Shown here: positions 3,001 to 64,000 of the stretch, in pieces
How the letters are laid out: the number at the start of each line of letters is the position of its first letter
Position numbering within the stretch: the first letter of the stretch is position 1
Source of the DNA: a virus
Length of the DNA: 64,000 bases
Virus record (IMG/VR): IMGVR_UViG_3300032236_000815
Span: 24,585-88,584 of that record
Reading direction: 5' to 3' (one strand)
The notes under the pieces: model-generated
What the model saw: only the letters and a program-made list of their open reading frames with translations
Databases searched by the model: none
What the model was told of the DNA's origin: nothing
Program-made: the position numbers and the translations under genes

Positions 3001-4247
3001 AGAGTGGTGTAATTACTGAAATCCGTATGATTGAACCAGGTAGCGGTTATGCAAAAGGTAACGTTTCTGCAACTACAATTACAACTAACGTGATTACAGT
3101 TGATGATACTACTAACTTACAAAACAATCAACCAGTTACATTTAATCAAAGTTCAGGTGGTATTGTAGCTGGTACAGTATACTATGTTCTATACGGTAGT
3201 ATTACAGTTAGTAGCTTCCAGATTACAACAGCCTCTGGTGGTACAACAGCAATATCGTTAACAACTAGTGCGCCAACTGGTATGATTTATCGTGCAGGTG
3301 CAATTGTCACACAGATTGATCCTAACAAGGTATTGACTGCGGCAATTAACCCACGTCAAGGTGACGGTGCATTAGGTAACCCAAGCTTCGGTAATAGAGG
3401 TACAGGTAACTCTACTGCTACAGCAAGTACATCAGGTGACGGATATGCTGATTTATTCCAAACTGGCGGATACTTAAACGTGGCTAATTTGTTTAGTTTA
3501 CCAACACCGGGATCAAACGTACAGTTTGCAAGTATTCCAGGTGTATGGTATAAACTGGTTACAGTTACAAACGTATTAGGTATTGCTGGCGCATACACAG
3601 CACAGATTCAAATTAATCCAAACATGAGTGCATTGTTGGCACCCCCACACAATGATATCATTACAACAAGATTAAAATACTCACAAGTACGTTTAACAGG
3701 ACATGACTTCTTGTATATTGGTACAGGTAACCAAGTACAGACGAATTATCCAAACGTAATTACAACTAATGCAATCCAAGCTAACCAAACTTACAGTTTA
3801 GGCGGTGGTCGTGTGTTCTACACCAGTACTGACCAAGACGGTAACTTTAACGTTGGTGGATTGTTTGGAGTTCAACAAGCAACTGGTACAGCTAGTTTGA
3901 ACGCTACAGCGTTTAACTTAGCAGGTTTACAATCATTGCAGTTGGGCGCAGTTAGTTTAGGTGTTGGTTCAGCTACAGTTACTCAATTCAGTACTGACCC
4001 ATACTTTACTGCTAACAGCGATAATATTGTTCCAACCCAAAAGGCTATTAAGTCTTACATTACCAGCCAAATTGGTGGCGGAGCAAGTACATTGAACGTA
4101 AATACTTTGACAGCGGGTGTAATTTACTTGAGTGGTAATACAATTACAACTACATCAGGCGGACAAATCATTGTATCGGCAAAAATGAACTTTACAGGTG
4201 GCGTAGACGGAAGTCCAGTGTCGCTTGCATACTTTATGACAAAATAA
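3..4247 (+). CDS. Large tail fibre/baseplate-type virion protein, 5'-truncated (frame is open from the window edge; 165 is not the real start)
   Basis: Thr/Gly/Ser-rich; propeller-like W.S..YGNG.FVA repeats and S.DG..W boxes; C-terminal SQVRLTGHDFL.IGTG...VFYTSTDQDGNF.VG block typical of T4-like aquatic phage structural proteins; frame 3 has no stop from base 3. Confidence 0.75.
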   Translation, partial: GSSWTAGNALPNTNFLALTYGNGVYVAVGGTTTTPAIASSTDGVTWVNRTAVGSVTYTSVAYGNGYFIAIASGSNVTALSTNGVSWSLGGVLPSSTTWSSITYGNGRFVAIASNGVAVAYSYNQGTTWYSSTNVGSPGLPYTQNWTKVRYGAGQFMAVAASPNVTLTATAASTNLITLSSTANVNVGNTLIPTSVTEATTATATTHATATSASGAIITNGVLTASNSTGTLTNGMLLTSSGTIVAGTYIQSTNTASFNSMINTTLMTVFSGTAPSVGMTVTGAGYASGTYVTNVNVATFTGFISNGNSGVAGTQLTAATITSGTLNTFQLITGGTVSANTYISGNTQFNTNNGSLTGSTLTLGTVSGSVALGQAVAGTGIPTGTYITAFGSGGAGGNGTYTVAGPGIPAAATGTISVVGIVYTLNNSQAVGTGASQTSFTATSYNVTNSQSVGSAASQITSTGTSYVLAGPGTASTQTQTSATITGTNDLVTVGSTAGMTVGEPIAFTYFTISTTLTATNSSGNLLTVASTSGFTVGGSIIFTAVTQSGLLTASASTGNLLTLSSTSGLVNGETIVFTSVTQATTLTATTPSASTFTGYIAGTTLTVGTVGSGTIAIGQVLTGSTTVAGTYIVANISGSGNGSTWQVSVSQTVGSSGSLQALTGTGNLITLNTSTGMVVGESFVVGTNVGNLLTSSTYYITKIIGNQIAVGTSSGATSDFTVSNTTGQSVSVTAGTVFGGITSGTTYYVTSISGSQITISASYSGANLTLTNAAGAWTYASGAAFGGITSGTTYYILSIPTPGTNGTITVSTSYGGSVQAVTSANGAWTAVEGSVFGNLVSGTTYYISEVIGSTQIALSTSYGATTNFTLASQNGSWSTTAGSILGNLVSGNTYYITSISGNNVTVSTSLGGSTFSLISDTGAWTAVIGNAYAATSWDGINWSTQLLGTSNSWSALTYGNPISATLGAQPTWVTLSNAAGTTTAVSTRAGATPLGRVTAKSGVITEIRMIEPGSGYAKGNVSATTITTNVITVDDTTNLQNNQPVTFNQSSGGIVAGTVYYVLYGSITVSSFQITTASGGTTAISLTTSAPTGMIYRAGAIVTQIDPNKVLTAAINPRQGDGALGNPSFGNRGTGNSTATASTSGDGYADLFQTGGYLNVANLFSLPTPGSNVQFASIPGVWYKLVTVTNVLGIAGAYTAQIQINPNMSALLAPPHNDIITTRLKYSQVRLTGHDFLYIGTGNQVQTNYPNVITTNAIQANQTYSLGGGRVFYTSTDQDGNFNVGGLFGVQQATGTASLNATAFNLAGLQSLQLGAVSLGVGSATVTQFSTDPYFTANSDNIVPTQKAIKSYITSQIGGGASTLNVNTLTAGVIYLSGNTITTTSGGQIIVSAKMNFTGGVDGSPVSLAYFMTK

Positions 4248-4259
4248 CGGAGAAATAAC

Positions 4260-4580
4260 ATGGCATCAGGACGAGTCGCATCGGTTGCACCAAACGCAAC
4301 ATCAATCACAACAATTTACCCAGTACCAACTGGGTACTATGGCATCTATAATGTTAGTATCACAAATACTAACACTACGCCAGTAACCATTCGTTTAGCA
4401 GTAGCCGCAGGCGCTACACCAAACGCTAACGAATACATCGAGTACAATGCAACTATTGTACCTAACGGTGTACTAGAGCGTACAGGTATTGTTGCTGCCG
4501 CTGGTACATACATTGTTGGTTATGCAAGTGCTTCACTTGTAAACTTTAATGTATGGGGCATTGAGACATCAACATCATAA
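4260..4580 (+). CDS. Small virion structural protein (fibre-associated)
   Basis: 106 aa beta-rich, GGAG RBS, sits between fibre genes. Confidence 0.55.
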   Translation: MASGRVASVAPNATSITTIYPVPTGYYGIYNVSITNTNTTPVTIRLAVAAGATPNANEYIEYNATIVPNGVLERTGIVAAAGTYIVGYASASLVNFNVWGIETSTS

Positions 4581-4592
4581 GAGAGAATTTAA

Positions 4593-5465
4593 ATGGCAAG
4601 ATATAATACCCAACTAGGTATGGCAACAAGTCCAACTACTGGACTTATACAGTACGTAACTAGTGCAACTACAATAACTACACCGTATCAAGGTCTGTAT
4701 ACAGAAATTGGATCAACTACTGCGGCAATATTTACTATTAACTTGCCAACGCCAGCGAGTTTCCCAGGAACTACGCAGACATTTTTTAATAACTCTGCTT
4801 ACGCAGTTACTTTATCTATTACTGGTGGTATTTTTACAGGTAGTATCGGCTCAGCTGGTACAAATTTTATTTTAAATCCAACTGCTACAGTTACAATATT
4901 TTCAGACGGTACAAACTATGTTTGTATGAGCGGTACTGGCGGCGCCCAAGCTGTAAGTACGTTGTCTGCTAGTTCAACTGTAAACTTGAGCCCATCTAAT
5001 GCTAACGTAACACTTAGCCCAACTGGTTCAGGACAAGTGTTTATTAGTCCAGCAACAACTGGTTCTATCAGTAACATGACATTTACTGCTGGCGGTTTAA
5101 CAACATTACAACAAACTACTGAAGTTCTTGCTACTATTGCAAGCCCAGGCGGCACAGCTACACTAAACTATAACACTACTGACATTTGGTATTTGACTGG
5201 TTTAAGTGCAAACTTTACAGCCGCATTTACTAACGTGCCAACAACATTGCTAAGAACTGTTACTATGACATTGATTTTAGTGCAAGGTGGTACAGCGTAT
5301 ATTCCAAACGCGGTAACAATTAACGGTACAAGTTATAGTATTACATGGCCAGCTGGTATTGTTCCAACTGGAACAGCTAACAGGGTTAACATTGCAACAT
5401 TCTTTATTGTCAATGCTACAGCCGCACCTAACTATGTGTTAGGACAAATCAGTGAATACGGTTAA
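4593..5465 (+). CDS. Tail fibre-like protein; C-terminal domain paralogous to 51917..52579
   Basis: Thr-rich; NVPTT..RTVT.TL.L.QGGT.YIPN...INGTSYSI.W..GI.P.G.AN shared with 51917..52579. Confidence 0.65.
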   Translation: MARYNTQLGMATSPTTGLIQYVTSATTITTPYQGLYTEIGSTTAAIFTINLPTPASFPGTTQTFFNNSAYAVTLSITGGIFTGSIGSAGTNFILNPTATVTIFSDGTNYVCMSGTGGAQAVSTLSASSTVNLSPSNANVTLSPTGSGQVFISPATTGSISNMTFTAGGLTTLQQTTEVLATIASPGGTATLNYNTTDIWYLTGLSANFTAAFTNVPTTLLRTVTMTLILVQGGTAYIPNAVTINGTSYSITWPAGIVPTGTANRVNIATFFIVNATAAPNYVLGQISEYG

Positions 5466-5487
5466 TCAATAATTTAGGAGAATAAGA

Positions 5488-7158
5488 ATGCCAATTACAA
5501 GTACCGTTGGAGGAACAGTTGAGTTAAAAGGACTTGGCGGCGCCCACCCAGGAGTTGCACCAGTAGATACTTCGGCTAGTACAGCCGCAGGCTCTATCGG
5601 AACTATGACAGTAACCGCAGGCGGCTGGGTAAGTTCAGGAACTACACCACCAGGCTATCCGTCAGGATATTATCCACTCAGCATTTCAAGTGTATCTGGA
5701 AGCCGTGTAGCATTTGATCCGTTTGGTCAAGGCGCTATCACTTATACACTTCCAAACGCACTTAGCGGTACTATAACATCTGTTAGTGGCGCAACTGTAA
5801 CCATCAGCGGATCTACATCCGGTATGGCTCAAGGTAGCGACTTTACAGTATATTTTTCAGGTGGTGGTACAAACGCTCAACAGTCTACATATGGTGGAGT
5901 ATGGCCAGGAACATGGTATGTTGCCAGTGTTGTTAGCGGAAACCAAGTTACACTAGCAACTACTTACGGTAATGCTATTGCAAATAGTCCAACTACATTC
6001 CAAAGTTATAACACTAGCTATACAGTAAGCGGTTTGAATTATGTTAGCGGAGCATTACCTAGCGGATTGTCGTTTAACTCAAGTACAGGAACTGTAAGCG
6101 GAGCCATTTCTATTAACTCAACTAGTAACCCAGGTTATAATAATGGAATGCTTTTAAACTATCCACCTAGCGGCGGCCTATACGACGGAAGAACTGTTCC
6201 AACAACCTCATACCAATTTAAAGTACGTGCTACTGATGCGTTAGGTATTAATCAAACAGATCGTCAATATAGTATTAACTTGAGTGTGCCATATGCATAT
6301 CGTCAAGTTATCACAACAACTTACTTGCAAGCTGGTTATGCAAACAGCTCATGTTGGCAAACTACTTGCCGTACAACAAACTCGACAGACACTACTATCG
6401 ACTTGGGTTCAAGTGGTTACCAGGAAGTTGCTCATAACTACCAGATGAGTGCTCACAACTTAACTCGTTCGTTCACATTTGGTGCAGGATCGGCTCACTG
6501 TGCCGCGGCAAGTAACGTTATTGCATTTAATATGCGTACTGAAACTGCTAATACTGCGGGTTATTCACGTGGTTATCCAGTAAGTCAAAATAACTGTTCT
6601 ACACTACGTCAAGAATATTACTATGCATGGTGTACAAGCCCAGCGGCAACTACAGTATATGAAATGAATTTGACAACCGAACAAGGTTATACTGCTCCTA
6701 CTTCATGCCCAGGCCCTAATGCATTAACTGGAAATAGCTGGGACGGTTATGGTGTTTGGATGAGTCAAAACTACAACATGACTTACTCTAATCGAACAGT
6801 TACCAGCCGTGGCGGTACTACTGTTACTGGTGATGCTCAAGGTAAAGTAATGGAAGGTAAGATTAACGCTTACGGTGGCCGTGAAGGTTGCCCAAGCACA
6901 AACTGGCGTAGAACTGTTCAAAGTACTAACACCAGTGTTGATGCGGCTGGCGCAAAACCTTACAACTCAGGCGAAGAAAACAACATGACTGGCCAAGATT
7001 GGGGATATTGTATCGGATTCTACGGACCTGCAGGACACGTTAATACATCATTTAAATTTATCTATGCTACAGAAGCAGGGTATGGAACTAATGCTAGTTT
7101 GGAAGCTAAAGGCGGACACGCAGGTAACAGTTCAGGAACCACATGTTGGCGAGATTAA
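5488..7158 (+). CDS. Tail fibre/adhesin with putative Ig-like domain and Cys-rich C-terminal repeat domain
   Basis: SGALPSGLSFNSSTGTVSG...YQFKVRATD Ig-like signature; Cys-rich C-terminal half. Confidence 0.6.
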   Translation: MPITSTVGGTVELKGLGGAHPGVAPVDTSASTAAGSIGTMTVTAGGWVSSGTTPPGYPSGYYPLSISSVSGSRVAFDPFGQGAITYTLPNALSGTITSVSGATVTISGSTSGMAQGSDFTVYFSGGGTNAQQSTYGGVWPGTWYVASVVSGNQVTLATTYGNAIANSPTTFQSYNTSYTVSGLNYVSGALPSGLSFNSSTGTVSGAISINSTSNPGYNNGMLLNYPPSGGLYDGRTVPTTSYQFKVRATDALGINQTDRQYSINLSVPYAYRQVITTTYLQAGYANSSCWQTTCRTTNSTDTTIDLGSSGYQEVAHNYQMSAHNLTRSFTFGAGSAHCAAASNVIAFNMRTETANTAGYSRGYPVSQNNCSTLRQEYYYAWCTSPAATTVYEMNLTTEQGYTAPTSCPGPNALTGNSWDGYGVWMSQNYNMTYSNRTVTSRGGTTVTGDAQGKVMEGKINAYGGREGCPSTNWRRTVQSTNTSVDAAGAKPYNSGEENNMTGQDWGYCIGFYGPAGHVNTSFKFIYATEAGYGTNASLEAKGGHAGNSSGTTCWRD

Positions 7159-7196
7159 CCTGCTAAATATTCAACAATTTTTAGCAAGAGGAATTT

Positions 7197-8060
7197 ATGA
7201 TAGATAGAATTAAACAATTTAATGATCGAAGTGTTGACGTTGATTTGCATTCAGATACTAGTATGATGTCTGATTCGGACAAACAGCATATTATTAAAGC
7301 GTTGAATAAAGAATGGACTAACCCAAAATTTAAAATGCGTTGGTTCGTTGGGCAAGCCCAGGTAACTATCTATGCAAAATATCGTCAATTCTTAATGGAA
7401 CTAAAAAGCCGCGAAGAAGGTATTGAAGATCTTGAGTATAAAATGGAACAATGGTCCATTGATATTGCTCGCCACGAGATGATTGCATCTGAAGCAGTTG
7501 ACGATTTAGACAAAAGAATGGCAAAACTTGAAATTAAAAAGTTAAGTCGTGATTTAAGTCGTAGTCGTCGAATTGTAGAAGGTTGGTATTTAGAGCGTCA
7601 ATTATATTGTGATTTAATTAACGAATTTTTGGCAAGCCCCGAAGCACTACTTCCCGATAATAGTGGTAGAACTTATGCAGATATCATTAATACAGATGAA
7701 GAAGATGTATACGAAGAATTGCTATGGACTCATAGACTAGCAAAGCAAGCCGCTTGTGATTTAATGTTTTACGGAAAGATCAATAGCGGTAACATGGATG
7801 CTATTCTTAGTATGCATCCAGACCAGCAAGCACAAACGTTTGCACTAGCAACAAATTTTAGTATGCAAGTTCAAAGCTATTTGCTAGAGTTACAAGATCA
7901 AGCACAAACACATGCTAGCCTAGGCAAACCATTTAACAACGGTGATCTAGCATTGCCCAGAGCATTTAACAGAGCTCCTCCAGCAGAAGACATTACTAAA
8001 ATAGATAATCCTCAGCAATCAACAGAAATTAAGGATATGTTAAATGTATATAATATTTGA
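7197..8060 (+). CDS. Hypothetical protein (coiled-coil; possible fibre assembly factor)
   Basis: GAGG RBS, TAAATA upstream; helical charged composition. Confidence 0.45.
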   Translation: MIDRIKQFNDRSVDVDLHSDTSMMSDSDKQHIIKALNKEWTNPKFKMRWFVGQAQVTIYAKYRQFLMELKSREEGIEDLEYKMEQWSIDIARHEMIASEAVDDLDKRMAKLEIKKLSRDLSRSRRIVEGWYLERQLYCDLINEFLASPEALLPDNSGRTYADIINTDEEDVYEELLWTHRLAKQAACDLMFYGKINSGNMDAILSMHPDQQAQTFALATNFSMQVQSYLLELQDQAQTHASLGKPFNNGDLALPRAFNRAPPAEDITKIDNPQQSTEIKDMLNVYNI

Positions 8061-8598
8061 ATCTAGACGACACGACGAACCTAAAATTAAAGATTACGGT
8101 AAGTTTTGGTTTTATCTCATAGGCTATATTGCTCCAGAAGATGAAGCAAGTGTCGATTTATCAGATTTTAGTTATACTGAAATTTCCGAAGCTGTAGCAA
8201 ATGCTGATTTATTAGCACCATCGAATGACGGTGTTGCAGTTGTTAGACAGCTTAAAGAAAATATGACTCGTGCTGATTTTGTTGGTCCAACTGGTTTGAA
8301 CTACGGCGACAATCAAGGTAAGAAAGAATATTACGTTTTAACAGACGAAGATAAAACTAATTGCTGTACTTTGTTAAGAGAAATAATGAAGTTACAAATT
8401 GCCAATCACGGCCATCGTAAAGATCCTATAGAATTAGAAGCACTAAAAACGGCTATTGATCAGTTGCCAACTAGCGATTTAAATTCTACTCAAATGTTTA
8501 TGAGTACATATTTTGAATTTGAAACTGCATATACTCAGTTTAAAACCAAACAACCAGTTATTAATATCAAATTCAAGTTTGATGGCGACGGTTTTTAA
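8044..8598 (+). CDS. Hypothetical protein
   Basis: 184-aa ORF overlapping previous stop, AAGGA RBS. Confidence 0.5.
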   Translation: MYIIFESRRHDEPKIKDYGKFWFYLIGYIAPEDEASVDLSDFSYTEISEAVANADLLAPSNDGVAVVRQLKENMTRADFVGPTGLNYGDNQGKKEYYVLTDEDKTNCCTLLREIMKLQIANHGHRKDPIELEALKTAIDQLPTSDLNSTQMFMSTYFEFETAYTQFKTKQPVINIKFKFDGDGF

Positions 8599-8620
8599 AC
8601 CAATCCACTTCTAAAATTTT

Positions 8621-8659
8621 AAAAGAGATGCTAAACTAAGTAAGTTAGCATCTTTTTTT
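8621..8659 (+). terminator. Intrinsic terminator
   Basis: AGATGCTAA/TTAGCATCT stem followed by T-run. Confidence 0.65.
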
Positions 8660-8669
8660 ACGGCGGCGT

Positions 8670-10352
8670 ATGTCTAAAATCTTTAGTATTCCAATTAATC
8701 CAAAATTAAACGCTGATCAATTCAATCAGTTTTATAAATTCTTAGCAGAATACAAAGACTATATCCGCGACATTTATTTCACCAGTAGAATCGCACCATT
8801 TATGCAAGACGCAATGGGCGATGTATTTGTTATCCACGAAGATCATTCTTATCTAATTGAAACAGCCTTGCATATTCAACGCACATTAGGGATTCCCGTT
8901 AGTGCTACATTTAACAATATACAAGTTGCACCAACACAAAAGAATTTAGACATTTTCATTAGTAATTTTAAACCATTATATGATGCAGGAGTACGTAGTG
9001 CTACAATTCCTCATACACATTGGATGGCAACGGGACAGATTAAAGCGGCCTTTCCTGAATTATATGTTAAGAACACTATCCTAAGAGAAGTACATACTGC
9101 ACAGGAAGTAGTTAATTTAGCACAATACGGATTTGATTACATAAACTTAGACCGAGATCTAATGCGTGACCATGATAAATTACGAGAAATAAAACGAGCA
9201 AAAGAATATATTAAAAAAACATTAGGTAAGGATATTGCAATTAGTTTGCTTGCCAACGAAGGGTGTGCAGGCGGATGCAGTATGATGGAGGAACATTATC
9301 ATTTTAACAATATACGTGAAGGTGTAAACAGTCCTCAATACTTCAATGATACAATCAGCCGTGTAAGTTGCCCTAATTGGAATGTACAAGATTCATCTAT
9401 ATTTCTTAAACAAGCTAATTTTACTCCTTGGAAAGCAGACTGGGACGAGTTTGTTAATGACCTTGGAATAGATAGCATTAAAATGCATGGAAGAGAAGGT
9501 ATAACTAGGCTATTTGAAACTATGGAAATTGTTCGTAGATACGCTGCCGGGGAAGAATTTCTATATCCAGGATTTGAAAGATATTTAGAAGAAACTAATC
9601 TTGTTGAAAAACCTATTAACATATGGCGCAACAAGATTAAAACATGTCGGTTTGAATGCTGGGATTGTAACTATTGCGACAAAGTATATGAAAAGAAATC
9701 TGATATAGAATTTTCAGAGTTGGTAAAACATGCCGCAGATTGTGTATTAAAATCAGGTGTACCCACTGTAAGAGTTGATGCTCCAGGATTGACTAGTGTT
9801 AGAGTACAAACGCTATTGAACTTACTAGCGCAAGGTGTTAATACATACTTAGAAATAGGTGCCGCTCAAGGAGCAACATTCTGTGCAGTATTAAAAGACA
9901 ATCCGATTCGTGCTATTGCTGTTGATAACTGGAAACAAAATATCCAACCAGCAAATGGTCAAGTTACAATGCCGGCAAACTCTTTAAATACTTTTATTAA
10001 AAACTTTGAAAAATATAAAGGCAATTCAAATATTAGCATTATTGATCAAGATTTATTTGAAGTAGATGTAACACCGTTTGCTGGAACAATTAAAATGATG
10101 TTCTATGACGGCCCGCACGAAGAAGAAGTAACTAAACGTGCTATGATGCATTATGCTCCAGCATTAGAAAACGAGGCAATTGTAGTATTTGATGATGCAA
10201 ACTGGCCGACAGTTGTTGCAGGTGCAAAAGCAGGTATTAAAGAAGCTGGGTTTGAAGTAGCATACGAAAAGTTAATGTTAAACGACTTAGAAGATCCTAA
10301 TGCTTGGTGGAACGGAGTATATGTAACAGTTATTAGGAAAATAAATGATTAA
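8670..10352 (+). CDS. U32-family (Fe-S) protein fused to a class I SAM methyltransferase (Methyltransf_24-like)
   Basis: LLANEGCAGGC, SCP.W, IKMHGRE and CRFECWDCNYC; C-terminal YLEIGAAQG, FYDGPH, VFDD motifs. Confidence 0.7.
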   Translation: MSKIFSIPINPKLNADQFNQFYKFLAEYKDYIRDIYFTSRIAPFMQDAMGDVFVIHEDHSYLIETALHIQRTLGIPVSATFNNIQVAPTQKNLDIFISNFKPLYDAGVRSATIPHTHWMATGQIKAAFPELYVKNTILREVHTAQEVVNLAQYGFDYINLDRDLMRDHDKLREIKRAKEYIKKTLGKDIAISLLANEGCAGGCSMMEEHYHFNNIREGVNSPQYFNDTISRVSCPNWNVQDSSIFLKQANFTPWKADWDEFVNDLGIDSIKMHGREGITRLFETMEIVRRYAAGEEFLYPGFERYLEETNLVEKPINIWRNKIKTCRFECWDCNYCDKVYEKKSDIEFSELVKHAADCVLKSGVPTVRVDAPGLTSVRVQTLLNLLAQGVNTYLEIGAAQGATFCAVLKDNPIRAIAVDNWKQNIQPANGQVTMPANSLNTFIKNFEKYKGNSNISIIDQDLFEVDVTPFAGTIKMMFYDGPHEEEVTKRAMMHYAPALENEAIVVFDDANWPTVVAGAKAGIKEAGFEVAYEKLMLNDLEDPNAWWNGVYVTVIRKIND

Positions 10353-11871
10353 AAAAGTTAAAAAAATTATAGTATTTGGTGGCGGAACTAGCGGTTGGCT
10401 AACAGCCGCCTACTTAGTTAAAAACTTAACTATACCTGCAGAAGTTGTTCTTATCGAAGATGCAAGTGCAGGCCCTATTGGAGTAGGTGAAGGTACACAA
10501 CCATTTACTGCTAGATTTTTATACGAAGCTGGAATACCGCCTAAGGCATGGATGAAGTCTAGTCAAGCGGTATTTAAATACGGTGTAGAAATTACAGGAT
10601 TTAACGAAGAACCATATTTTGTCGATAACGATGTGCCAACAAATTGCATGATTGGTCAAGGGTTATTTGTCAGCGATTATTTTGTCGACAGACCATACAG
10701 CGAAGTACGAGATTGGCACCCAGCATATCAGCTTGCTAAAAATAATATTAGTAGCAAATACGACGATTACCTAGATGCTAATCACGGTTCGGGTCCTGAT
10801 AGCTACGGTGCAGTACATTTTAATGCATTTGATATTATTAAAACAATCAAAGAAATCATACTAGATAAAATTACATACGTCGACACACGCATTTCAGATG
10901 TAAAACAAGATAAAGATGGCATAACAAAACTAGTAGCACAGGACGGTAGCGAATATATTGCAGATTTATATTTGGATTGTACAGGTTTTTCTAGTTTACT
11001 ATTAGAAAAGACACTAGGATCTCCGTTTACCAACTATTCGCCTTGGCTCCCATGCGATAGTGCTGTAGCAATGCCTACTGAATTTAAAGATAAGCGAGCA
11101 GAAATGCATCCTTATACAAAATCAACAGCTATGACTTCTGGGTGGAGATGGACTATTCCTACCTTCACGCGAATAGGCAATGGTTACGTTTACAGTAGTA
11201 AACACATTACGCCCGAGCAAGCTGAGAAAGAGCTACGTGAAAGTATTGGCGAATTTAATGCTCCTGCAAAACATCTTAAAATGAAATGCGGAGTACACAA
11301 AGAAATCGCAGTTAAAAATGTGTGTGCTGTTGGACTAAGTGCTGGATTCATTGAGCCTTTAGAAGCGACTGGCATTACGTTTACAACAGCAACAGTACAA
11401 AGCATTGCAGAAATATTAAACATCAACGGCAACGTGTGGAATGACTATGCAAGAACAAATCTAAATGCTGGATTTTACGAAATGACTACTGAAATTTTTG
11501 CATTTGTATGGGCACACTATTATTTTAGTAGTAAAAATGATACACCATTCTGGCAAGATATTAGAAATATGAAAATTTCTGACTTACCACAAGAAGTACA
11601 AGACATATTAAATGTATTTTTAGAAAGACCACTGCCGTTTATTTTCTTAAAACCAAACAGCATGTTCTGTACATTCCAATGGTTTACGATGTTACATGCT
11701 GGAGGCGCATATAAAAATGTTACTAGTAGCTTAACTCCTAAGCAAAAAGAATACAGTAAATATTTCTTAGATTCTCACTCGGCTCGAGTCGAGCTGGCGA
11801 AGAAGATGTTTCCTAATCAATACGAATATTTACAATCTTGGTACAGCGACTGGGAATCAGAGGAGATATAA
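10345..11871 (+). CDS. Flavin-dependent halogenase (tryptophan halogenase family)
   Basis: GGGTSG, IGVGEGT, Lys in FKYG, WRWTIP, FIEPLEATG. Confidence 0.88.
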   Translation: MIKKVKKIIVFGGGTSGWLTAAYLVKNLTIPAEVVLIEDASAGPIGVGEGTQPFTARFLYEAGIPPKAWMKSSQAVFKYGVEITGFNEEPYFVDNDVPTNCMIGQGLFVSDYFVDRPYSEVRDWHPAYQLAKNNISSKYDDYLDANHGSGPDSYGAVHFNAFDIIKTIKEIILDKITYVDTRISDVKQDKDGITKLVAQDGSEYIADLYLDCTGFSSLLLEKTLGSPFTNYSPWLPCDSAVAMPTEFKDKRAEMHPYTKSTAMTSGWRWTIPTFTRIGNGYVYSSKHITPEQAEKELRESIGEFNAPAKHLKMKCGVHKEIAVKNVCAVGLSAGFIEPLEATGITFTTATVQSIAEILNINGNVWNDYARTNLNAGFYEMTTEIFAFVWAHYYFSSKNDTPFWQDIRNMKISDLPQEVQDILNVFLERPLPFIFLKPNSMFCTFQWFTMLHAGGAYKNVTSSLTPKQKEYSKYFLDSHSARVELAKKMFPNQYEYLQSWYSDWESEEI

Positions 11872-50780: not shown

Positions 50781-50846
50781 TCCTCTTGTAATATGATTTT
50801 GCTGATGTTATAATAAATACGCATATAATTAAATCGGAAGCGAATC

Positions 50847-51290
50847 ATGGAACTACACCACATCAGAGATCTGACCGACCCACTGGTCAAAATCATTAAG
50901 GACGACCCAGTTCGTCCGCACATCCCACTCGAGCAACGTATCAACGAAGCCGCAGAAATTCTTATCCTTAAAGCTGGGGAGGAAGTTCTGGCGGCCACTT
51001 GTATGCAGTGGTTAACTGAAGTTCCAGAAGACGAAGAAGATCTTGTTGAAATCTCAAAAGACAAAAATGTTGCGGTATTTTACACTATTTGGAGCTATAG
51101 TCCAGGTGCAGGACAGAAGCTACTTAAACAAGCCGCAGAATGGTTGCTTCGCGATTATAAAGACATTAAAGGTATTGTAACTTTAAGTCCACAAACAGAA
51201 ATGGCCAAGCGATTCCATCTAAAAAATGGTGCAAAAATTCGCCGTCAAAACCCAACAAGCGTTAACTACGAATACTATTTCAAGGAATAG
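50847..51290 (+). CDS. Hypothetical protein, possible GNAT-like fold
   Basis: FYTIWS...GAG.KLL and A.RFH.KNG resemble acetyl-CoA-binding motifs. Confidence 0.5.
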   Translation: MELHHIRDLTDPLVKIIKDDPVRPHIPLEQRINEAAEILILKAGEEVLAATCMQWLTEVPEDEEDLVEISKDKNVAVFYTIWSYSPGAGQKLLKQAAEWLLRDYKDIKGIVTLSPQTEMAKRFHLKNGAKIRRQNPTSVNYEYYFKE

Positions 51291-53235: not shown

Positions 53236-53263
53236 CCCGATAAATATACTACTAGGAGCGACG

Positions 53264-54124
53264 ATGTCAGTACAGATTAAATTAAGAAGAGATACAGCGG
53301 CAAATTGGGTTAACGTAAACCCAATTTTAGGTGCCGGTGAACCAGGCTTAGAAACCGATACAAATAAGATCAAGTACGGTGATGGGCAAAGCCGTTGGAA
53401 TTCTCTTCCATACCCTACTGTAACATTCCCGACTACAATTGCCGCGGCTAGTTTAGCCGCAAACGTTGCTGGTGGAGCCGCAAATCAGATTCTTTATCAA
53501 ACTCAAGCAGGTACTACTGGATTTATTACAGCGCCAACACAAATTGGTTTCTTACAATGGACTGGTTCAGGTTATAGCTGGAGTACAGGCGGTTACGCAC
53601 AAGGTTCTCAAATTTCAGGTACAATTTTAGCATCAAATATTGTAACTTCTAGTCTTACTACAGTTGGTACCTTAACAGGATTAACTGTCACAGGCGCTAT
53701 CCAAGCTAATGGTGGAGTTGCCGGTAATGTCACAGGAAATTTAACTGGAAATGTAACTGGAAATGTAACTGGAAACGCAACTACAGCAACCGCATTACAA
53801 AATTCAAGAACAATTAACGGTGTAGCATTTGATGGTACACAAAATATTACTGTCACTGCGGTAGCAACCAGCGCACCTGCAAATAGTCTTACTGGAAACA
53901 CTCTAGCAAGCGGTGTTACTACAAGTAGTTTAACTAGTGTAGGCACATTGAGTAGTTTAACTGTAAATGGTACAACTACCCATACTGGAGGAGCAGTTTC
54001 AATAACATACGGTACTGGAAATGCACTGTCAGTTACTGGAAATGCTAGTGTTTCTGGCGTATTATCGGTGGGCGGAACAAACATAAAATCATTGGCTCTA
54101 GCTTTCGCCGCGGCAATGAGTTAA
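53264..54124 (+). CDS. Fibre protein with Mtd_N-type N-terminus
   Basis: IKLRRDTAANW...GEPGLETDT; RTINGVAFDGT.NI; C-terminal KSLALAFAAAMS. Confidence 0.8.
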   Translation: MSVQIKLRRDTAANWVNVNPILGAGEPGLETDTNKIKYGDGQSRWNSLPYPTVTFPTTIAAASLAANVAGGAANQILYQTQAGTTGFITAPTQIGFLQWTGSGYSWSTGGYAQGSQISGTILASNIVTSSLTTVGTLTGLTVTGAIQANGGVAGNVTGNLTGNVTGNVTGNATTATALQNSRTINGVAFDGTQNITVTAVATSAPANSLTGNTLASGVTTSSLTSVGTLSSLTVNGTTTHTGGAVSITYGTGNALSVTGNASVSGVLSVGGTNIKSLALAFAAAMS

Positions 54125-58869: not shown

Positions 58870-58894
58870 AAAAAGCTCCGAAAGGAGCTTTTTT
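58870..58894. terminator. Bidirectional intrinsic terminator
   Basis: AAAAAGCTCC-GAAA-GGAGCTTTTTT. Confidence 0.9.
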
Positions 58895-58895
58895 G

Positions 58896-59474
58896 TTATC
58901 TAAATATCTTGGCAGGTTTAAGCCCTAGTTGCGGCCTACCGTCCCATGCTAGATTGCTATTAGCGCCTGCTTGATCCACATAGTGTAAGAACACTTGTAC
59001 TTGTTCCCTACCTTGATATGGTTCACGCCAGTGTTCAATCTCAGGCCCAGGATACACGCACATATCTCCAGGATATAACAGTACAGGTTCTCCCGCCATG
59101 TAGATTGCCCACGGTTCAGGATCTATACTAATGTTAAGTGTAGCTGATATTTCACAGCTGGGACGATCCTTGTGCCGAACCATCTCCGCACCATGCCAAT
59201 AGATTCGGGCATAACTGTAAGTGGGCACAACATCTAATCCGCTAGCTTCGGCCACTTGATCTCTTAACACAGTTAATAAACTTTCAGTGACCACAGGAGC
59301 ATAACAACTCCAACAGTTAAACTCAACAGGGTCCAATCCACTAAAATAACTACGATCCGTCAAGGGCACGTTATTGGTAAAATACTGATTGTTCTTCATC
59401 ATTTGCAAACTGGTGTGAACCAAGTCTAGCACAGGTTGGGCAACAGCGCCCCGTATGATCTTATAAGTTTCCAT
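58896..59474 (-). CDS. 2OG-Fe(II) oxygenase-like protein
   Basis: PTYSYARIY, HKDRPSCEIS, HWRE, QVFLHYV. Confidence 0.82.
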   Translation of the reverse strand: METYKIIRGAVAQPVLDLVHTSLQMMKNNQYFTNNVPLTDRSYFSGLDPVEFNCWSCYAPVVTESLLTVLRDQVAEASGLDVVPTYSYARIYWHGAEMVRHKDRPSCEISATLNISIDPEPWAIYMAGEPVLLYPGDMCVYPGPEIEHWREPYQGREQVQVFLHYVDQAGANSNLAWDGRPQLGLKPAKIFR

Positions 59475-59502: not shown

Positions 59503-60219
59503 ATGCGATTATTTGAATTTGCCCCACAAACTACAGCTCAACCTACACCACCATTAGCAACTACTCCTTTGGGTAGTGTACTGGAACGTACAGCCAAGGC
59601 AGCTGGTATTGTTGGAGTGGAACTAGCACAGTTATTGGGCCAATGCCACGTTGAGACCATAGGTTATCAGACACTTAAAGAACTGCCCAACAAATGGCAA
59701 CAGCACTACGAACCACCTTCAAAGACAGCCACTATGCTGGGCAACACACAGCCCGGAGATGGACCTAAGTTTATTGGGCGCGGATTCATACAAGTTACTG
59801 GCAGATACAACTATGATCAGTTTGCCCAGAACTCGGGTATTGACGTAGTTAACCATCCAGAGCTATTAGAAAAGCCAGACACAGCGGCCAAAGCTACTGT
59901 GGACTTTTGGCTAAATCGTGTACGTCCTTTGGTCAAAGATTTTACTCGAACAGACTCAGTGACCAAGATCATTAACCACGCTAAGAAGCATGCCGCGGAA
60001 CGTAAGACAGCATTTAAGCAGTATGCTAGTGCATTACCTACTCCACCTAAAACTCAACCCGCTACACAGCTAGCACAAGCCAAAAAGCCCCAACTACAAG
60101 CAGGTAGTCCAGTGAATACTACCAAGCCTAAACCACAAACAAAACCCGCGGCTCCCAAACCTGCAACACCTCCACCTAAAGCAGACTTGGGCCAATTTAT
60201 CAAGCAGAAAGGTTTCTAA
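59503..60219 (+). CDS. Glycoside hydrolase family 19 lysin/chitinase-like
   Basis: HVET, LGN..PGDG.KF.GRGFIQVTGR.NY, VTK.IN. Confidence 0.9.
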   Translation: MRLFEFAPQTTAQPTPPLATTPLGSVLERTAKAAGIVGVELAQLLGQCHVETIGYQTLKELPNKWQQHYEPPSKTATMLGNTQPGDGPKFIGRGFIQVTGRYNYDQFAQNSGIDVVNHPELLEKPDTAAKATVDFWLNRVRPLVKDFTRTDSVTKIINHAKKHAAERKTAFKQYASALPTPPKTQPATQLAQAKKPQLQAGSPVNTTKPKPQTKPAAPKPATPPPKADLGQFIKQKGF

Positions 60220-60247
60220 ACTATAAGTATATGACGGAGAACAAGTC

Positions 60248-60667
60248 ATGTACGATACCCACGCTAGAACAATAGTTAAAGCAGTAACATTTAGAATTCA
60301 AACCATTGCCCTACACTGGGTAATTACCTACTTGTTTACAGGTAGTGCTTCAAAGAGCACCACAATGGTGTTTACCATCACTACAATCAACATGATCTAC
60401 TACTGGCTACAAGAACGCTGGTTTGCCCGCATAAGTTATGGTTGGGCAGGTACAGATCTCAAACGCCGCAGTCTAGTTAAAGCAGTCTTATACAAGACAT
60501 GGAGTCTAGCTGTAAGTCTAATAGTGGGCTATATAGTACTGGGCAACATGGGCGATGCCGGCTTGTTAACTGTGATTAAACAGACTATTGCCCTAGCTGA
60601 CTTCTACGTATTTGAACGTGTTTGGAATAAGATTACGTGGGGAAGAACAAGCGAAGCTCAAAGCTAA
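60248..60667 (+). CDS. Tandem DUF2061-like membrane protein
   Basis: Two copies of R...KA..(F/Y)....ER.W..I.(Y/W)G. Confidence 0.75.
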   Translation: MYDTHARTIVKAVTFRIQTIALHWVITYLFTGSASKSTTMVFTITTINMIYYWLQERWFARISYGWAGTDLKRRSLVKAVLYKTWSLAVSLIVGYIVLGNMGDAGLLTVIKQTIALADFYVFERVWNKITWGRTSEAQS

Positions 60668-60734
60668 ATTTTTAGTTAGCGAAGCTCGGAAAAAAATTCC
60701 TATAGCTACGAAGTAGCAAGCGGTAAAACGCGAA

Positions 60735-60956
60735 CTAGCGTTCCCGCTCATTAGCCCTTTTGCATATACCTTTAATCAAACGGTGTCTCTCACTAGAATC
60801 CACCCTAGACTCACTTATACGCTCAATATCCTCTATGGCTGTTTCCAAGATCTCTATACGATTCAGAGCCGTGTAATAGCGATCTCTCAAAGTGGACGCT
60901 TGAAAGATGCTGACTAATCCTGCGATTAGTTTGGTTAACCATATGTGTGTATTCAC
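60735..60956 (-). CDS. Hypothetical protein
   Basis: 73 aa, coupled to upstream gene. Confidence 0.5.
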   Translation of the reverse strand: MNTHIWLTKLIAGLVSIFQASTLRDRYYTALNRIEILETAIEDIERISESRVDSSERHRLIKGICKRANERER

Positions 60957-61174
60957 TAGCGTTTATAGTAGTAAGCTATGGATGCTATTAGCGTAGATAA
61001 CACTAGAGCAGTATTCAAGTCTAATTCACCAGTTAATCTTCCTAGTATAACAATCATTAGTACTAGTGTAATAAATGGTAAAAAGCATAAGAAGATCAGC
61101 TTAGACAATCCAATTAAGAAAAATCCTAATTTTTGTCCGAAAGCATAACCTTTAGTTTCTTGCATGGTAGTCAT
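60956..61174 (-). CDS. Small membrane protein (start reassigned to ATG 61174)
   Basis: AGGA RBS; two hydrophobic segments. Confidence 0.55.
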   Translation of the reverse strand: MTTMQETKGYAFGQKLGFFLIGLSKLIFLCFLPFITLVLMIVILGRLTGELDLNTALVLSTLIASIAYYYKR

Positions 61175-61218
61175 AAAATGGGTCCTGTAAACTTTAAAAA
61201 ATCTAGCGCAAAAAAATT

Positions 61219-61440
61219 TTACGAAGTACTTATGGGTAAGCCCGTGGCTAAATCTAACCCTGGATCTACTAGTGGGCATGAGTCTCCGTATAGTAAGTAA
61301 AACTCTGTGAATATTCTTCCGTCTGGCACCCAAAAGCGTATACGATTAATGTGTATTTCACAAGCTAAGTTATGGTGTTTAATAAAGGCGAGCACATCCT
61401 TGTATATGGGATTACGGGTTAAAACATAGTATTGACGCAT
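61219..61440 (-). CDS. Hypothetical protein (MRQYYVL...)
   Basis: ATG 2 nt after the upstream small ORF stop. Confidence 0.55.
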   Translation of the reverse strand: MRQYYVLTRNPIYKDVLAFIKHHNLACEIHINRIRFWVPDGRIFTEFYLLYGDSCPLVDPGLDLATGLPISTS

Positions 61441-61442
61441 GG

Positions 61443-61550
61443 TTAGTCTAGTTTGAGTATACGCTGTAGCCAGTAGCCAAATGCATGTATAGGCGGGATT
61501 ACCAATACTGTACACACTATGGTTAAGAGAATCCAAAGAAAGTTGTTCAT
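61443..61550 (-). CDS. Small membrane peptide (35 aa; not in ORF track)
   Basis: MNNFLWILLTIVCTVLVIPPIHAFGYWLQRILKLD; TAAGTA box 4 nt upstream. Confidence 0.5.
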   Translation of the reverse strand: MNNFLWILLTIVCTVLVIPPIHAFGYWLQRILKLD

Positions 61551-61788
61551 ACAGTACTTATAGTAGGGGGCCGAAACATCAGCCCAAATAGGTTCTTGCA
61601 GACCTATTTAGATTGCTCGCGAAAAAATTAAAAGAAGTACTTATAGATTTAGAGGGGTGAAAATACTTCGGTACCCATGCGCTATAGCTAGTTGTTGCTA
61701 TTTTACAACACTTACGCCTGGTGCCCCCTGGTACTCGGTCGGTGGTCGAAATAATTCTTTTTGAAATATATTTTTCGATTTTGAAATC

Positions 61789-61934
61789 AAAAAAAATCCT
61801 AGGAACTTGCCGGGAGCGAATCGGGCTTATGGGTTCCTAGGACCTAACTACCAGACAACCTAGTGGGAGCGAATCACGTCAGCTGTCCTACTACTAGCTA
61901 GGGCTTATGGGTTATAGCTTATGTGCCCTAGCTA
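61789..61934 (-). ncRNA. Putative structured antisense-type RNA: three hairpins, two identical AUUCGCUCC loops, ending in a U8 terminator
   Basis: Stems 61895-61904/61925-61934, 61854-61859/61882-61887, 61797-61806/61833-61842; G-U pair and U-tract favour the minus strand. Confidence 0.65.
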
Positions 61935-61946
61935 TGCTGTAGCCTG

Positions 61947-62837
61947 TTAGCGGCTACGCATACATGTTACCTCTACTACACTCTGCCACTTGTTAGGCAT
62001 GCTCACACGGATGTCAGCTACCTTGAGTACCATACGCAAGCTGAGCTCGCGCATACGTTCAGCATTGGCTACAATGAACTCTACCACTTCCTGCTTCTCT
62101 GCGTCCTCTAGCTTGTATGCGTCCAACATACCACAGTCACGGACTACCTGCTTGATACGCAATAGCTTCTCACGTGTAGTATCAATAGTCAAGTCCAAGT
62201 AGTGGCAACGTGACTCCAGTGCTTCCAAATGATCACGCAACTTCTTTGACTTAACATGATCAAACTTGATGTTACTGATAAAGATAGCACCACCTTTGAA
62301 CTCAAAGCTGTTGGGCATGCCTTCTTGCTTGAGTGAGCGGCTGTCCGTATTCCAATGGATCATACGCTTCTTGCCTGAGTCCAAAGCTGCCTTTAGAATG
62401 TTCAAGGATAGGTCATCCAACAATACGCTATCACAGTCATCGAACACTAGGATACACTTAGGATCAGCAAACTCGTAGAGCTTCTTGTACAAACCAATGG
62501 CACTCATTGCGCCCTTAACCACTTCATACTTCTTGAGCTTGGAGTCCTGCGCTACATTAGCGAACACATCATGCTTGCTCAAGACTTTCTCAACACCAAA
62601 GCTCTTACCAACACCCGGGGGTCCTGTGACAATCATAGCACGTACATCACCCTTCTTAACCGCACGAGTCATGTCTTCCAAGATGTCAAAACGTTGGCCC
62701 AACCGTGCCATAATCTCGTCATCTGTTTCCTGTTTGAGTTGAGCTTCTTTGGCCTTCAAATAGTCCTTGTCTGTTTCCAAACTAGTGACTTCTGCTTTGG
62801 CATTTAGCAACATCGCGCTCGTTACAACCTTACCCAT
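61947..62837 (-). CDS. AAA+/P-loop ATPase (early gene)
   Basis: GPPGVGKS, LVFDDCD, FISN, ALESR. Confidence 0.85.
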   Translation of the reverse strand: MGKVVTSAMLLNAKAEVTSLETDKDYLKAKEAQLKQETDDEIMARLGQRFDILEDMTRAVKKGDVRAMIVTGPPGVGKSFGVEKVLSKHDVFANVAQDSKLKKYEVVKGAMSAIGLYKKLYEFADPKCILVFDDCDSVLLDDLSLNILKAALDSGKKRMIHWNTDSRSLKQEGMPNSFEFKGGAIFISNIKFDHVKSKKLRDHLEALESRCHYLDLTIDTTREKLLRIKQVVRDCGMLDAYKLEDAEKQEVVEFIVANAERMRELSLRMVLKVADIRVSMPNKWQSVVEVTCMRSR

Positions 62838-62859
62838 TTTCGCTCCTTATAAAGTGTTT

Positions 62860-62888
62860 ATTATACTACCTAATGTTCTTACTTGCAA
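62860..62888 (-). promoter_or_regulatory. Early promoter TTGCAA-N17-TATAAT inside a 12-bp inverted repeat
   Basis: Direct reading; arms CCTAATGTTCTT/AAGAACATTAGG. Confidence 0.75.
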
Positions 62889-62941
62889 TGATTAAGAGCA
62901 AGAACATTAGGAGTAGATGAAATAAAGTAAACCAGTTCATA

Positions 62942-63262
62942 TTAGTCTAAACGGCTACCGGCATAAGCGCGGAGTCCAAGTCCTTGTAGATATGTAGCCA
63001 ATGCTTCTGCACCCGCTTCTTTTACTGATACTGACTGAGTTGGGAGTTTTGCTGGATCCCAGAAGCTAAGGCATTTTGGTTTGTAGTCTTTGCGAAAGCC
63101 TGCCTTGATCAGCTCTTTTGCTTGAGCTGAGTTAGTACGGTCCACGTATACATCAACCCAACCAAAGCCACATGCGTCACGCTCGCCTACTCGTTGATAC
63201 ATTTCGATGCCTGCTTGGCGAGCAAGTTCAAAGCCTGGAAGTACTTGTTCTGCTGTAATCAT
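62942..63262 (-). CDS. Hypothetical early protein
   Basis: CGFGWV...QS...KE.GA.A....L...G.RA...SRLD; GGAGCGA RBS. Confidence 0.7.
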   Translation of the reverse strand: MITAEQVLPGFELARQAGIEMYQRVGERDACGFGWVDVYVDRTNSAQAKELIKAGFRKDYKPKCLSFWDPAKLPTQSVSVKEAGAEALATYLQGLGLRAYAGSRLD

Positions 63263-63295
63263 AGTTCGCTCCTATTAATTGCTGTTGAAGTAGTT

Positions 63296-63324
63296 ATTAT
63301 ACTACCAAAGGGTAGGGTTGTCAA
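63296..63324 (-). promoter_or_regulatory. Consensus early promoter TTGACA-N17-TATAAT
   Basis: Direct reading. Confidence 0.88.
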
Positions 63325-63445
63325 TAGCCTTTCGTTTAGAGTGGGCTTTGATGCCTTCCTCTACGAACAGGCTCGCGCCCAGGATGCCTAAGAATGCCCA
63401 CAAAGGCCAAGTGAAGTAAAATGCTTCTAATAGGGTTTGTAACAT
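63302..63445 (-). CDS. Small membrane protein (47 aa; not in ORF track)
   Basis: GGAGCGA RBS; MLQTLLEAFYFTWPLWAFLGILGASLFV... Confidence 0.65.
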   Translation of the reverse strand: MLQTLLEAFYFTWPLWAFLGILGASLFVEEGIKAHSKRKAIDNPTLW

Positions 63446-63472
63446 AGTATCGCTCCTTTGTTATTAGTCTTA

Positions 63473-63501
63473 ATTATAAGCTCAAACTGCCTGGATGTCA
63501 A
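63473..63501 (-). promoter_or_regulatory. Consensus early promoter TTGACA-N17-TATAAT
   Basis: Direct reading. Confidence 0.88.
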
Positions 63502-64000
63502 TCACTTTGCGGACGAATCCAGTGGTATCTTTCTTAGCACGACCCTTAGCCTTCAAGCCTGCAATCACGTTCTTCTTGTCCAAAAAGCGCAAGTCAGTTT
63601 CGTCAGCATTAATAACTTCACGACCCATATATGTCTCTGGGAGCCGATCAAACACCATTGCCACATTCATGCCTTGTGCAATCGCTCGGGCTACATCACT
63701 ATCGTTGCCGTCTGCGGCACTGAATGTAAGGTGGTAGTTAGGCAAGTGGCTAACCTTACGACCCAAGACCTTAGTGTAGTCGTAGAACTGTACTTGAGGG
63801 AACTTTTCAAAAATGCCTGTCTTTTCAAACGCCAAGTCACTAGTACCATTGAGGCGGAACACTGGAGTCAAACCCAGCTTCGTTGCCATCTTAATACCTT
63901 TCACAATGTCTGCTTCTAAGTCTGCCATGAACGCATCTTTGTTTTCAAAGAAGTACTTGGTCTTGCGGATGCGAGCCTGCTGAATCATGTTGGTGTTCTC
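63482..64000 (-). CDS. Phage Gp88-like protein, 5'-truncated
   Basis: RLNGTSD, FYDYTK, NYHLTFS, D..DLRFLD, GLKAKG.A; frame open to window edge. Confidence 0.75.
   Translation of the reverse strand, partial: ENTNMIQQARIRKTKYFFENKDAFMADLEADIVKGIKMATKLGLTPVFRLNGTSDLAFEKTGIFEKFPQVQFYDYTKVLGRKVSHLPNYHLTFSAADGNDSDVARAIAQGMNVAMVFDRLPETYMGREVINADETDLRFLDKKNVIAGLKAKGRAKKDTTGFVRKVIDIQAV

Follow-up and report, generated by a model that had tools for sequence, protein, structure and literature searches.

An array of putative early genes in an uncultured large myovirus ends in a conserved, structured RNA element whose hairpin loops are complementary to an extended Shine-Dalgarno (SD) sequence placed ahead of the genes of that same array. 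The loop and this ribosome-binding site (RBS) tag probably base-pair to control early protein synthesis. From the sequence comparisons presented below, it appears reasonably likely that the element works as a multivalent anti-RBS which, from the shared 3′ UTR and terminator, pairs with the tag of the gene class and limits the translation or the stability of early mRNAs. The original prediction had proposed such a complementarity between 3′-UTR loops and an extended SD that marks a class of genes. It is upheld by the recurrence of tag and anti-tag together in related phages, by a loop that stays fixed while its stems co-vary, and by a second tag/loop pair in another lineage.

The source record is an 88,584-nt IMG/VR virus contig, and the window is its last 64 kb (64,000 nt). 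CheckV gives a completeness of 24% for the record, and matches to tail sheath, tail tube and large terminase indicate that it comes from a large myovirus. The right end of the window carries four co-directional genes on the minus strand. One of them, truncated by the end of the record, encodes a GP88-domain protein. It is followed by a 47-aa gene (63302–63445; RBS AGGAGCGA at 63450–63457; promoter TTGACA-17-TATAAT at 63473–63501), by a 106-aa gene without Pfam family (62942–63262; RBS AGGAGCGA at 63266–63273; promoter TTGACA-17-TATAAT at 63296–63324) and, as the final gene of the array, by the gene of a 296-aa AAA-ATPase (61947–62837, Pfam AAA/AAA_16; RBS AGGAGCGA at 62840–62847; promoter TTGCAA-17-TATAAT at 62860–62888). 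Each of the three visible starts is therefore preceded by its own sigma-70-type promoter, then by an A/C-rich leader and then by AGGAGCGA. The common RBS had been correctly recognised in the original prediction, with coordinates displaced by one base. We call these genes early on account of their host-type promoters. Homologues of the ATPase, searched by tblastn in a phage collection, include the T4-type nrdC.10 and a PA5oct protein; those of isolate phages, either PA5oct-like or T4-type, are distant, with identities of at most 48%. The gene context of the PA5oct ATPase locus differs from that of the window. A blastn search of the same collection with 61400–64000 gave no match, and ARAGORN detected neither tRNA nor tmRNA genes in the window.

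Downstream of the ATPase stop codon, the minus strand presents in succession hairpin 1, hairpin 2, hairpin 3 and a U8 tract (61789–61933). Hairpin 1 (61896–61933 in the RNAfold minimum free energy (MFE) structure) is devoid of an anti-RBS loop. Hairpin 2 (61853–61888) has an outer stem GGACAGC/GUUGUC(U) and an inner stem GUG/CAC that closes the loop AUUCGCUCC (61866–61874). The same 9 nt form the loop of hairpin 3 (61797–61842) at 61813–61821, here closed by an inner CCG/CGG stem that is followed by an internal loop and a 10-bp outer stem. Hairpin 3 is G+C-rich and directly precedes, on the transcribed strand, the U8 tract (61789–61796) that completes an intrinsic terminator; a simple terminator scanner missed it because its loop is longer than 8 nt. 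The MFE of 61780–61950(−) is −54.7 kcal/mol, in a structure containing all three hairpins, compared with −43.65 ± 4.15 kcal/mol for shuffled sequences (z = −2.66; 2 of 200 shuffles fold as well). Within hairpin 3, a 3-bp AGC/GCU alternative covers part of the loop in the MFE structure. Sequence and folding thus confirm the three hairpins with their U8 tract after the AAA gene, the identical loops on different stems and the sequence shared by hairpins 1 and 3, as originally described. The shared sequence ACCCATAAGCCC is found at 61823 and at 61901; hairpin 1 in fact contains a 13-nt duplicate, AACCCAUAAGCCC (61901–61913), of the 5′ arm of hairpin 3 (61823–61835). The duplicated ACCCAUAAGCCC is restricted to the lineage of the window, and the first hairpin differs in relatives. 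A cmscan of 60500–64000 on both strands against Rfam (E ≤ 10) returned four matches of chance level and no credible family.

Eight nucleotides of the loop AUUCGCUCC, namely UUCGCUCC, are the Watson-Crick complement of GGAGCGAA. The predicted energies of the duplexes between the loop core and the three early RBSs range from −13.2 to −14.1 kcal/mol, compared with a median of −6.0 kcal/mol over the 76 called genes. Two more genes, at 53264 (−13.8 kcal/mol) and 50847 (−15.3 kcal/mol), also have strong predicted duplexes. The heptamer GGAGCGA occurs six times in the 88.6-kb record, as four RBSs and two antisense copies in the loops. Since the count of six in the window (2.3 ± 1.4 expected) is reached in 2 of 100 shuffles, the local excess is modest by number alone, and the weight of the evidence lies in the placement of the motif and in the relatives rather than in the local count. 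The fourth tag copy, AGGAGCGA at 53254–53261 on the plus strand, is the RBS of a late tail-fibre-like gene (53264–54124, Mtd_N domain), which is a possible extra target and an exception to an "early only" rule. The tag predicted for the early class is thus found at the three early RBSs, but it is not strictly early, in view of this late gene and of scattered tagged genes in a close relative.

The 3′ tail of the canonical 16S rRNA is CACCUCCUUA. This tail pairs with GGAG and not with CGAA, although that of the actual host may differ. Because the canonical tail cannot pair with CGAA, ribosome binding does not account for this extension, which would be an address rather than a means of making a better SD.

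An ATPase-seeded search for relatives gave 70 loci, 65 of which are unique. In about 50 of these 65, one or two hairpins with CCGAUUCGCUCCCGG lie 3′ of the ATPase stop codon and usually close in U7–9. The layout common to these relatives (clade A) is a row of small genes that all have a GGAGCGA(A) RBS and a sigma-70-type promoter of their own, with one or two AUUCGCUCC hairpins at its end. The loop is nearly invariant: among 92 motif copies from 48 sources, 87 are exactly AUUCGCUCC, three are AAUCGCUCC and two, both in locus L051, are GUCGCUCC. The flanks of these copies are highly varied, with 72 distinct 17-nt 5′ flanks. The closing 3-bp stem is nevertheless paired in 96.2% of the cells of the hairpin alignment. 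Double-sided stem changes (CG to UA, GC etc.) number 16, compared with 2.1 ± 1.3 in shuffles (reached in 0 of 500), and pairing is lost once the partner columns are slid. In the MFE structures, the full 9-nt loop is unpaired in 58 of 84 distinct hairpins and partly paired in 26, mostly through a weak alternative. Alignment A1 contains homologues of hairpin 3, likewise in terminal position, from 43 distinct relatives, and the GUG/CAC form of hairpin 2 is also present in L003, L010, L019 and L032. A run of at least five T within 32 nt of the last motif hairpin occurs on the gene-sense strand in 45 of the 48 sources. L028, L056, L058 and a further clade have a distinct terminator after the motif hairpin, which shows that this hairpin is an independent module, tied neither to one gene nor to the terminator. 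On the 5′ side of the hairpins, an internal loop YRUAARYC is semi-conserved and is unexplained by pairing. A second contact envisaged at the outset, ACCCAU in hairpin 3 against AUGGGU of the ATPase leader, was found in 0 of 45 relatives and was rejected.

The positions of the tag are constrained as well. In the 65 unique loci, 209 of the 219 sense-strand GGAGCGA copies stand 0–12 nt before a start codon (ORFs of at least 30 aa), and 87 of the 96 opposite-strand copies do not precede one. In 47 clade-A loci, a crude gene call gave 353 plus-strand ORFs as far as the ATPase; GGAGCGA stands before 150 of them and at least GGAGC before 222, in a set that includes some spurious ORFs and misses genes of less than 45 aa. 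The RBS consensus after GGAG is C (74%), G (57%), A (54%) and A (59%; n = 336), and therefore GGAGCGAA is the complement of loop positions 2–9. The distance from GGAGCGA to the start codon, 1–6 nt, is SD-like. Moreover, an unbiased count retrieved GGAGCGA and the overlapping GAGCGAA as frequent upstream 7-mers whose reverse complement occurs twice in the 3′ tail; apart from promoter hexamers, the sole other 7-mer to pass the same screen was the A-rich AAAAGAA in L010.

Larger contigs show the same arrangement. In G001 (107 kb), 11 forward GGAGCGA copies at 2154–11514 are followed by two reverse copies at 12458 and 12536, and none is found in the other ~94 kb. In G003, a close relative of 383 kb with a CheckV completeness of 100%, nine forward copies at 87658–98121 are followed by two reverse copies at 99091 and 99161. 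Sigma-70-type promoters (TTGAC-N17-19-TAnAAT) accompany these arrays at about one per gene, with 20 forward sites at 1748–11484 in G001 and 24 at 87018–97762 in G003. A simple scanner detected nothing resembling a plus-strand terminator within the L027 array. Outside the arrays of three large relatives, 18 places with 19 GGAGCGA matches were examined, and about half of these matches are RBSs of single genes; no second anti-tag hairpin was seen at these 18 places. L088 has the same 3′ flank CGGCAAG, without a predicted enclosing stem. Scattered genes outside the array also bear the tag in G003, and in some relatives tagged genes lie past the terminator, as do four genes in L038.

A second tag/loop pair occurs in a sister clade, where both partners differ. 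In L053–55, L059, L063 and L072, the tail loops are of the UGCCCUC type and the RBSs read (G)AGGGCA. In L072, the unbiased count gave GAGGGCA as the upstream 7-mer equivalent to GGAGCGA. A search with an ATPase of this clade B reported 250 relatives of the protein and yielded 64 unique loci, whose tails were examined over 272 nt. At least two GCCCUC copies are present in the tail of 36 of them, and 195 of the 211 sense GAGGGC copies of these loci are RBSs; clade B tails have 2–5 hairpins with GCCCUC loops. Three of the 64 have one GCCCUC tail copy, with 7, 7 and 2 GAGGGC RBSs, and the 25 that have no GCCCUC loop have no GAGGGC RBS. The clade-A tag is nearly missing from this whole set (0–2 per locus). 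The base after GAGGGC is A in 166 cases, U in 29, G in 11 and C in 5, and the base before GCCCUC is U in 50 cases, A in 31, C in 11 and G in none; the complementarity of these rank orders is only suggestive.

Crude unbiased screens, together with a search seeded with L051 that reported 178 ATPase relatives, point to two robust tag/loop pairs and to variants of them, namely the GUCGCUCC loops of L051 and the UGCCCUU loops that accompany AAGGGCA RBSs in L223 and L226. L051 fits the pattern in part only, since most of its RBSs read GGAGCA and would form 5 bp with GUCGCUCC before a mismatch. In L244, the loops contain GCCCUC but the 7-mer found most often at its RBSs is AGGAGCA. As both partners are nearly invariant within each clade, true independent co-variation events are few, and the two pairs may reflect a single evolutionary switch. 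The distribution of the element was surveyed in loci where the stop codon of an ATPase homologue is followed by 200 nt or more of sequence, which gave 194 unique tails. UCGCUCC lies no more than 260 nt past the stop in 88 of them; in 35, UUCGCUCC is found 260–1200 nt downstream, beyond an extra gene; 38 are of the clade-B type and 33 are of neither type. This sample is biased, because one of its four source searches used the motif itself. A 15-mer scan of viral contigs gave, among the matches listed, some that have no tag or hairpin context (L099, L101, L104, L116–118); they probably are chance or coding matches and were not counted as members.

The following mechanism can be proposed. Each early gene would be expressed from its own sigma-70-type promoter, with an A/C-rich leader and the private extended SD GGAGCGAA. 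As no terminator-like site was seen inside the array, transcripts from all its promoters should share one end with the hairpins, and a nested set of mRNAs would result, all finishing with the anti-RBS element. Two hairpins would then present AUUCGCUCC in single-stranded form to the GGAGCGAA tags. Pairing may block binding of the 30S subunit, expose the mRNA to decay, or both. A transcript may be paired in cis once it is complete, a stable 3′-end fragment may act in trans, or both may occur; in the first case, only nascent mRNAs would be translated. The outcome would be that early protein synthesis is limited or shut off as a class. Stoichiometric silencing in cis of all sites is impossible, because a transcript has 2 loops for up to 10–24 RBSs, and an 8-bp duplex is short for RNase III. 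We infer that the element is transcribed in the gene sense, that pairing takes place in vivo and that its effect is repressive. A search of sequencing runs retrieved none recorded as RNA, and three runs labelled RNA-Seq, like the best DNA run, consisted of contigs that are probably DNA. RNA–RNA pairing is the best explanation because the sequence at the SD site and its looped complement are both conserved and change together between clades. For repression, the argument comes from the precedents of icaR, of anti-SD (aSD)-like 8-mers and of OppZ/CarZ, as far as the consulted parts of these sources describe them (PMC3868564; PMC12697547; PMC7398697).

Other readings of the same data have to be weighed. 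If pairing is real but serves another purpose than repression, such as protection from nucleases or from defence systems, circularisation, or the coupling of RBS occupancy to termination or read-through, then all the evidence from complementarity and co-variation fits equally. The position of the motif inside or just ahead of the terminator, and the tagged genes past the terminator in relatives such as L038, would also suit such a role. However, the known 3′-located anti-SDs repress or cause decay, according to the portions of the reports at hand (PMC3868564; PMC12697547; PMC7398697), and a pairing limited to the apical loop would not melt the terminator stem; we regard this reading as unlikely, and it is the most serious of the competitors. 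A lower probability is given to a protein site, in which a factor of antitermination, processing or translation, for example, would recognise the hairpins; the RBS tag would be a separate signal and its complementarity to the loops a side effect. RNAs that titrate or recruit proteins also carry several identical loops on variable stems, the loop is invariant even though the phage ATPases are only 60–85% identical, and the YRUAARYC internal loop would find a use. But a protein that binds single-stranded RNA would not read a sequence and its complement alike, the second clade changed both partners with complementarity kept, and loci without the loops are also without the tag. These points make a protein site improbable.

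The hairpins can fold from either strand, and the original prediction had kept as an alternative a plus-strand decoy for an RNA-binding repressor. The GGAGCGAAU loops of such an RNA would mimic early RBSs and, like CsrB, lure away a translational repressor or 30S subunits. The plus-strand genes of the window at 59503–60667 indeed converge on the element, with just a weak terminator-like site between. This alternative is nevertheless disfavoured, to the point of being quite improbable: nearly all sources have the U-tract after the last hairpin as read in the gene sense, many relatives have co-directional flanking genes and a new sense promoter after the U-tract, and the window shows no promoter-like site from which plus-strand transcription would enter the element. 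Slighter still is the probability of a DNA operator GGAGCGAAT, bound by a phage or host protein after each early promoter and, in reverse orientation, where the array ends. A double-stranded site is the same in both orientations and the tag lies ~15–35 bp downstream of each −10 box, but the tag keeps the SD-like spacing to the start codon, and the inverted copies are always in hairpin loops with compensatory stems, which a DNA site does not require. Finally, chance or hitch-hiking complementarity in plain terminator hairpins could invoke the modest 7-mer excess of the window. It has a negligible probability, given a loop almost invariant beside freely varying stems, a second complementary pair in another clade and the joint presence or absence of tag and loop. 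Repressive pairing of the 3′-end loops with the RBS tags remains our preferred reading.

This element resembles several known systems. In Cuckoo RNAs (CcsR/alpha-r14) of Alphaproteobacteria, 2–4 adjacent hairpins share the same anti-SD-like, pyrimidine-rich loop on variable stems (PMC4615179). The same architecture is found here, with two loops in the window, 1–2 in clade A and 2–5 in clade B. However, the Cuckoo loop motif, as given in the available part of that study, is CCUCCUCCC, a generic anti-SD, whereas the phage loops are AUUCGCUCC or GCCCUC; moreover, Cuckoo RNAs are described there as bacterial chromosomal sRNA genes (PMC4615179), whereas the phage element lies in the 3′ UTR and terminator of an operon and matches a private SD extension. 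The OppZ and CarZ sRNAs of Vibrio cholerae derive from 3′ UTRs and inhibit the translation of their own operons (PMC7398697), as is proposed here; the phage element likewise lies in a 3′ UTR including the terminator and is complementary to translation-initiation regions of its operon. According to the text available, OppZ and CarZ have one target site each, are released by RNase E and depend on Hfq (PMC7398697). The phage element differs in having its pairing sequence in hairpin loops, one of which is the terminator loop, and in facing up to about two dozen tagged RBSs.

In Staphylococcus aureus icaR, the 3′-UTR anti-SD motif UCCCCUG base-pairs with the mRNA's own SD region, which blocks initiation and creates a substrate for RNase III (PMC3868564). 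A 3′-UTR/SD complementarity of this kind exists in the phage, where the sharing of one transcript is deduced from the terminator-free array. Unlike the phage element, icaR is, in the part of the report consulted, a single gene with a single motif, without class tag, repeated loops or orthogonal variants (PMC3868564). The C4 antisense RNA of P1/P7 is closer by its origin: it is phage-encoded, has loops complementary to sequences near an RBS of its own operon and exists as lineage-specific variants (in part after PMC12197685). C4 stands upstream of its target, is processed from a precursor and controls ant alone for immunity, whereas the phage element closes an early array with several promoters and would address many genes. 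The analogy to C4 drawn in the original prediction holds for the loop–RBS complementarity, UUCGCUCC against GGAGCGAA, but as an analogy of mechanism only, since the Rfam model of C4 gave no match. Lastly, experiments have shown that aSD-like 8-mers can pair with an RBS hundreds of nucleotides away, with decay promoted and initiation blocked as a result (Gill et al., 2025, preprint, PMC12697547), which is the physical mechanism put forward here for the phages. From the sections consulted, these were synthetic substitutions in Bacillus subtilis, and such 8-mers are depleted in natural genes; those of the phages are conserved, looped and matched to a tag. As far as these sources go, the architecture is closest to Cuckoo/CcsR and the logic to 3′-UTR autoregulatory sRNAs and icaR, and the element belongs to none of these groups because its loop motif differs and no Rfam model matches. 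No description of it was found in the literature searched, which left most subscription journals outside, or in the accessible part of a 2025 review of phage sRNAs (PMC12197685).

More tentatively, and with rather less confidence than for the pairing element itself, these data may be read as an RNA-only temporal switch in a large group of aquatic giant myoviruses. Early mRNAs, made by the host RNA polymerase, would share a private SD address, a multivalent anti-address RNA at their 3′ end would silence the class, and sister lineages would use orthogonal pairs, GGAGCGAA/UUCGCUCC and GAGGGCA/UGCCCUC. To our knowledge, phage early genes are shut off by proteins or by single-target antisense RNAs. 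In T4, the shut-off proteins are RegA and RegB, and base-pairing would do here what T4 does with these two proteins. If true, an address system made of RNA alone would serve the whole early class, and it would be conserved across at least ~160 distinct uncultured phage contigs, a figure from a motif-biased sample. Such a reading explains why an SD extension unable to pair with the canonical 16S tail is conserved. For annotation, the early region of these giant phages has a simple marker in its closely spaced sigma-70-type promoters, its tagged RBSs and the anti-tag hairpin at its end. Natural orthogonal RBS/anti-RBS pairs would provide translation switches for synthetic biology and, in nature, would let co-infecting relatives regulate their early genes independently.

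Of all predicted duplexes with the loop core, i.e., the part of the 9-nt hairpin loop that is complementary to the tag (the extended Shine-Dalgarno sequence containing GGAGCGA), the strongest involves the leader of ORF 50847-51290 on the plus strand (-15.3 kcal/mol). In this region (50825-50850, plus strand), the leader sequence GGAAGCGAAUC lies immediately 5' of the start codon of the ORF, which has a weak malonyl-CoA decarboxylase C-terminal match. The early-gene RBS AGGAGCGA also serves a late, tail-fibre-like gene with an Mtd_N domain (53254-54124, plus strand), so that the tag is not exclusive to the early array. TTAGAAAGGAGCGTCTTCGTCCTC recurs on the minus strand of related loci (L015, L027, L029, L032, L038 and others), where it corresponds to the end of an opposite-strand gene encoding ...EDEDAPF*, an SSB-like acidic tail. 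The recurrence of this gene end accounts for some of the GGAGCG matches found outside RBSs.

Within the anti-RBS element, the alignment of terminal hairpins from relatives (homologues of hairpin 3) shows that the 5' internal loop is semi-conserved, with YRUAARYC located 5' of CCG (61822-61832 in the window, and in relatives). This internal loop has no part in the proposed pairing. Hairpin 1 (61901-61913) and the 5' arm of hairpin 3 (61823-61835), both on the minus strand, are connected by a direct duplication of 13 nt, AACCCAUAAGCCC. The first hairpin differs in relatives, where a CYAAGA-type loop is often found.

Elsewhere in the window, the gene of a 1569-aa fibre and the convergent gene 58896-59474 are separated by a palindromic hairpin (58870-58893) with a perfect 10-bp stem between A5 and T5. 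It looks like a bidirectional terminator.

Directly 3' of the U8 terminator of the anti-RBS element, a second conserved non-coding module, also present in relatives, is observed on the minus strand (~61640-61745). It comprises, in order, a G-rich box with TATA, a small GTTG..CAAC hairpin, and GCGCATGGGTACCGARG and AAGTACTTCTTTTAT (exact 13-mer in five of 44 loci). Using a strict pattern, the G-rich box and TATA were found in 14 of the 44 clade-A loci (related loci carrying the GGAGCGA tag). This module may represent a further type of promoter or an additional small RNA.
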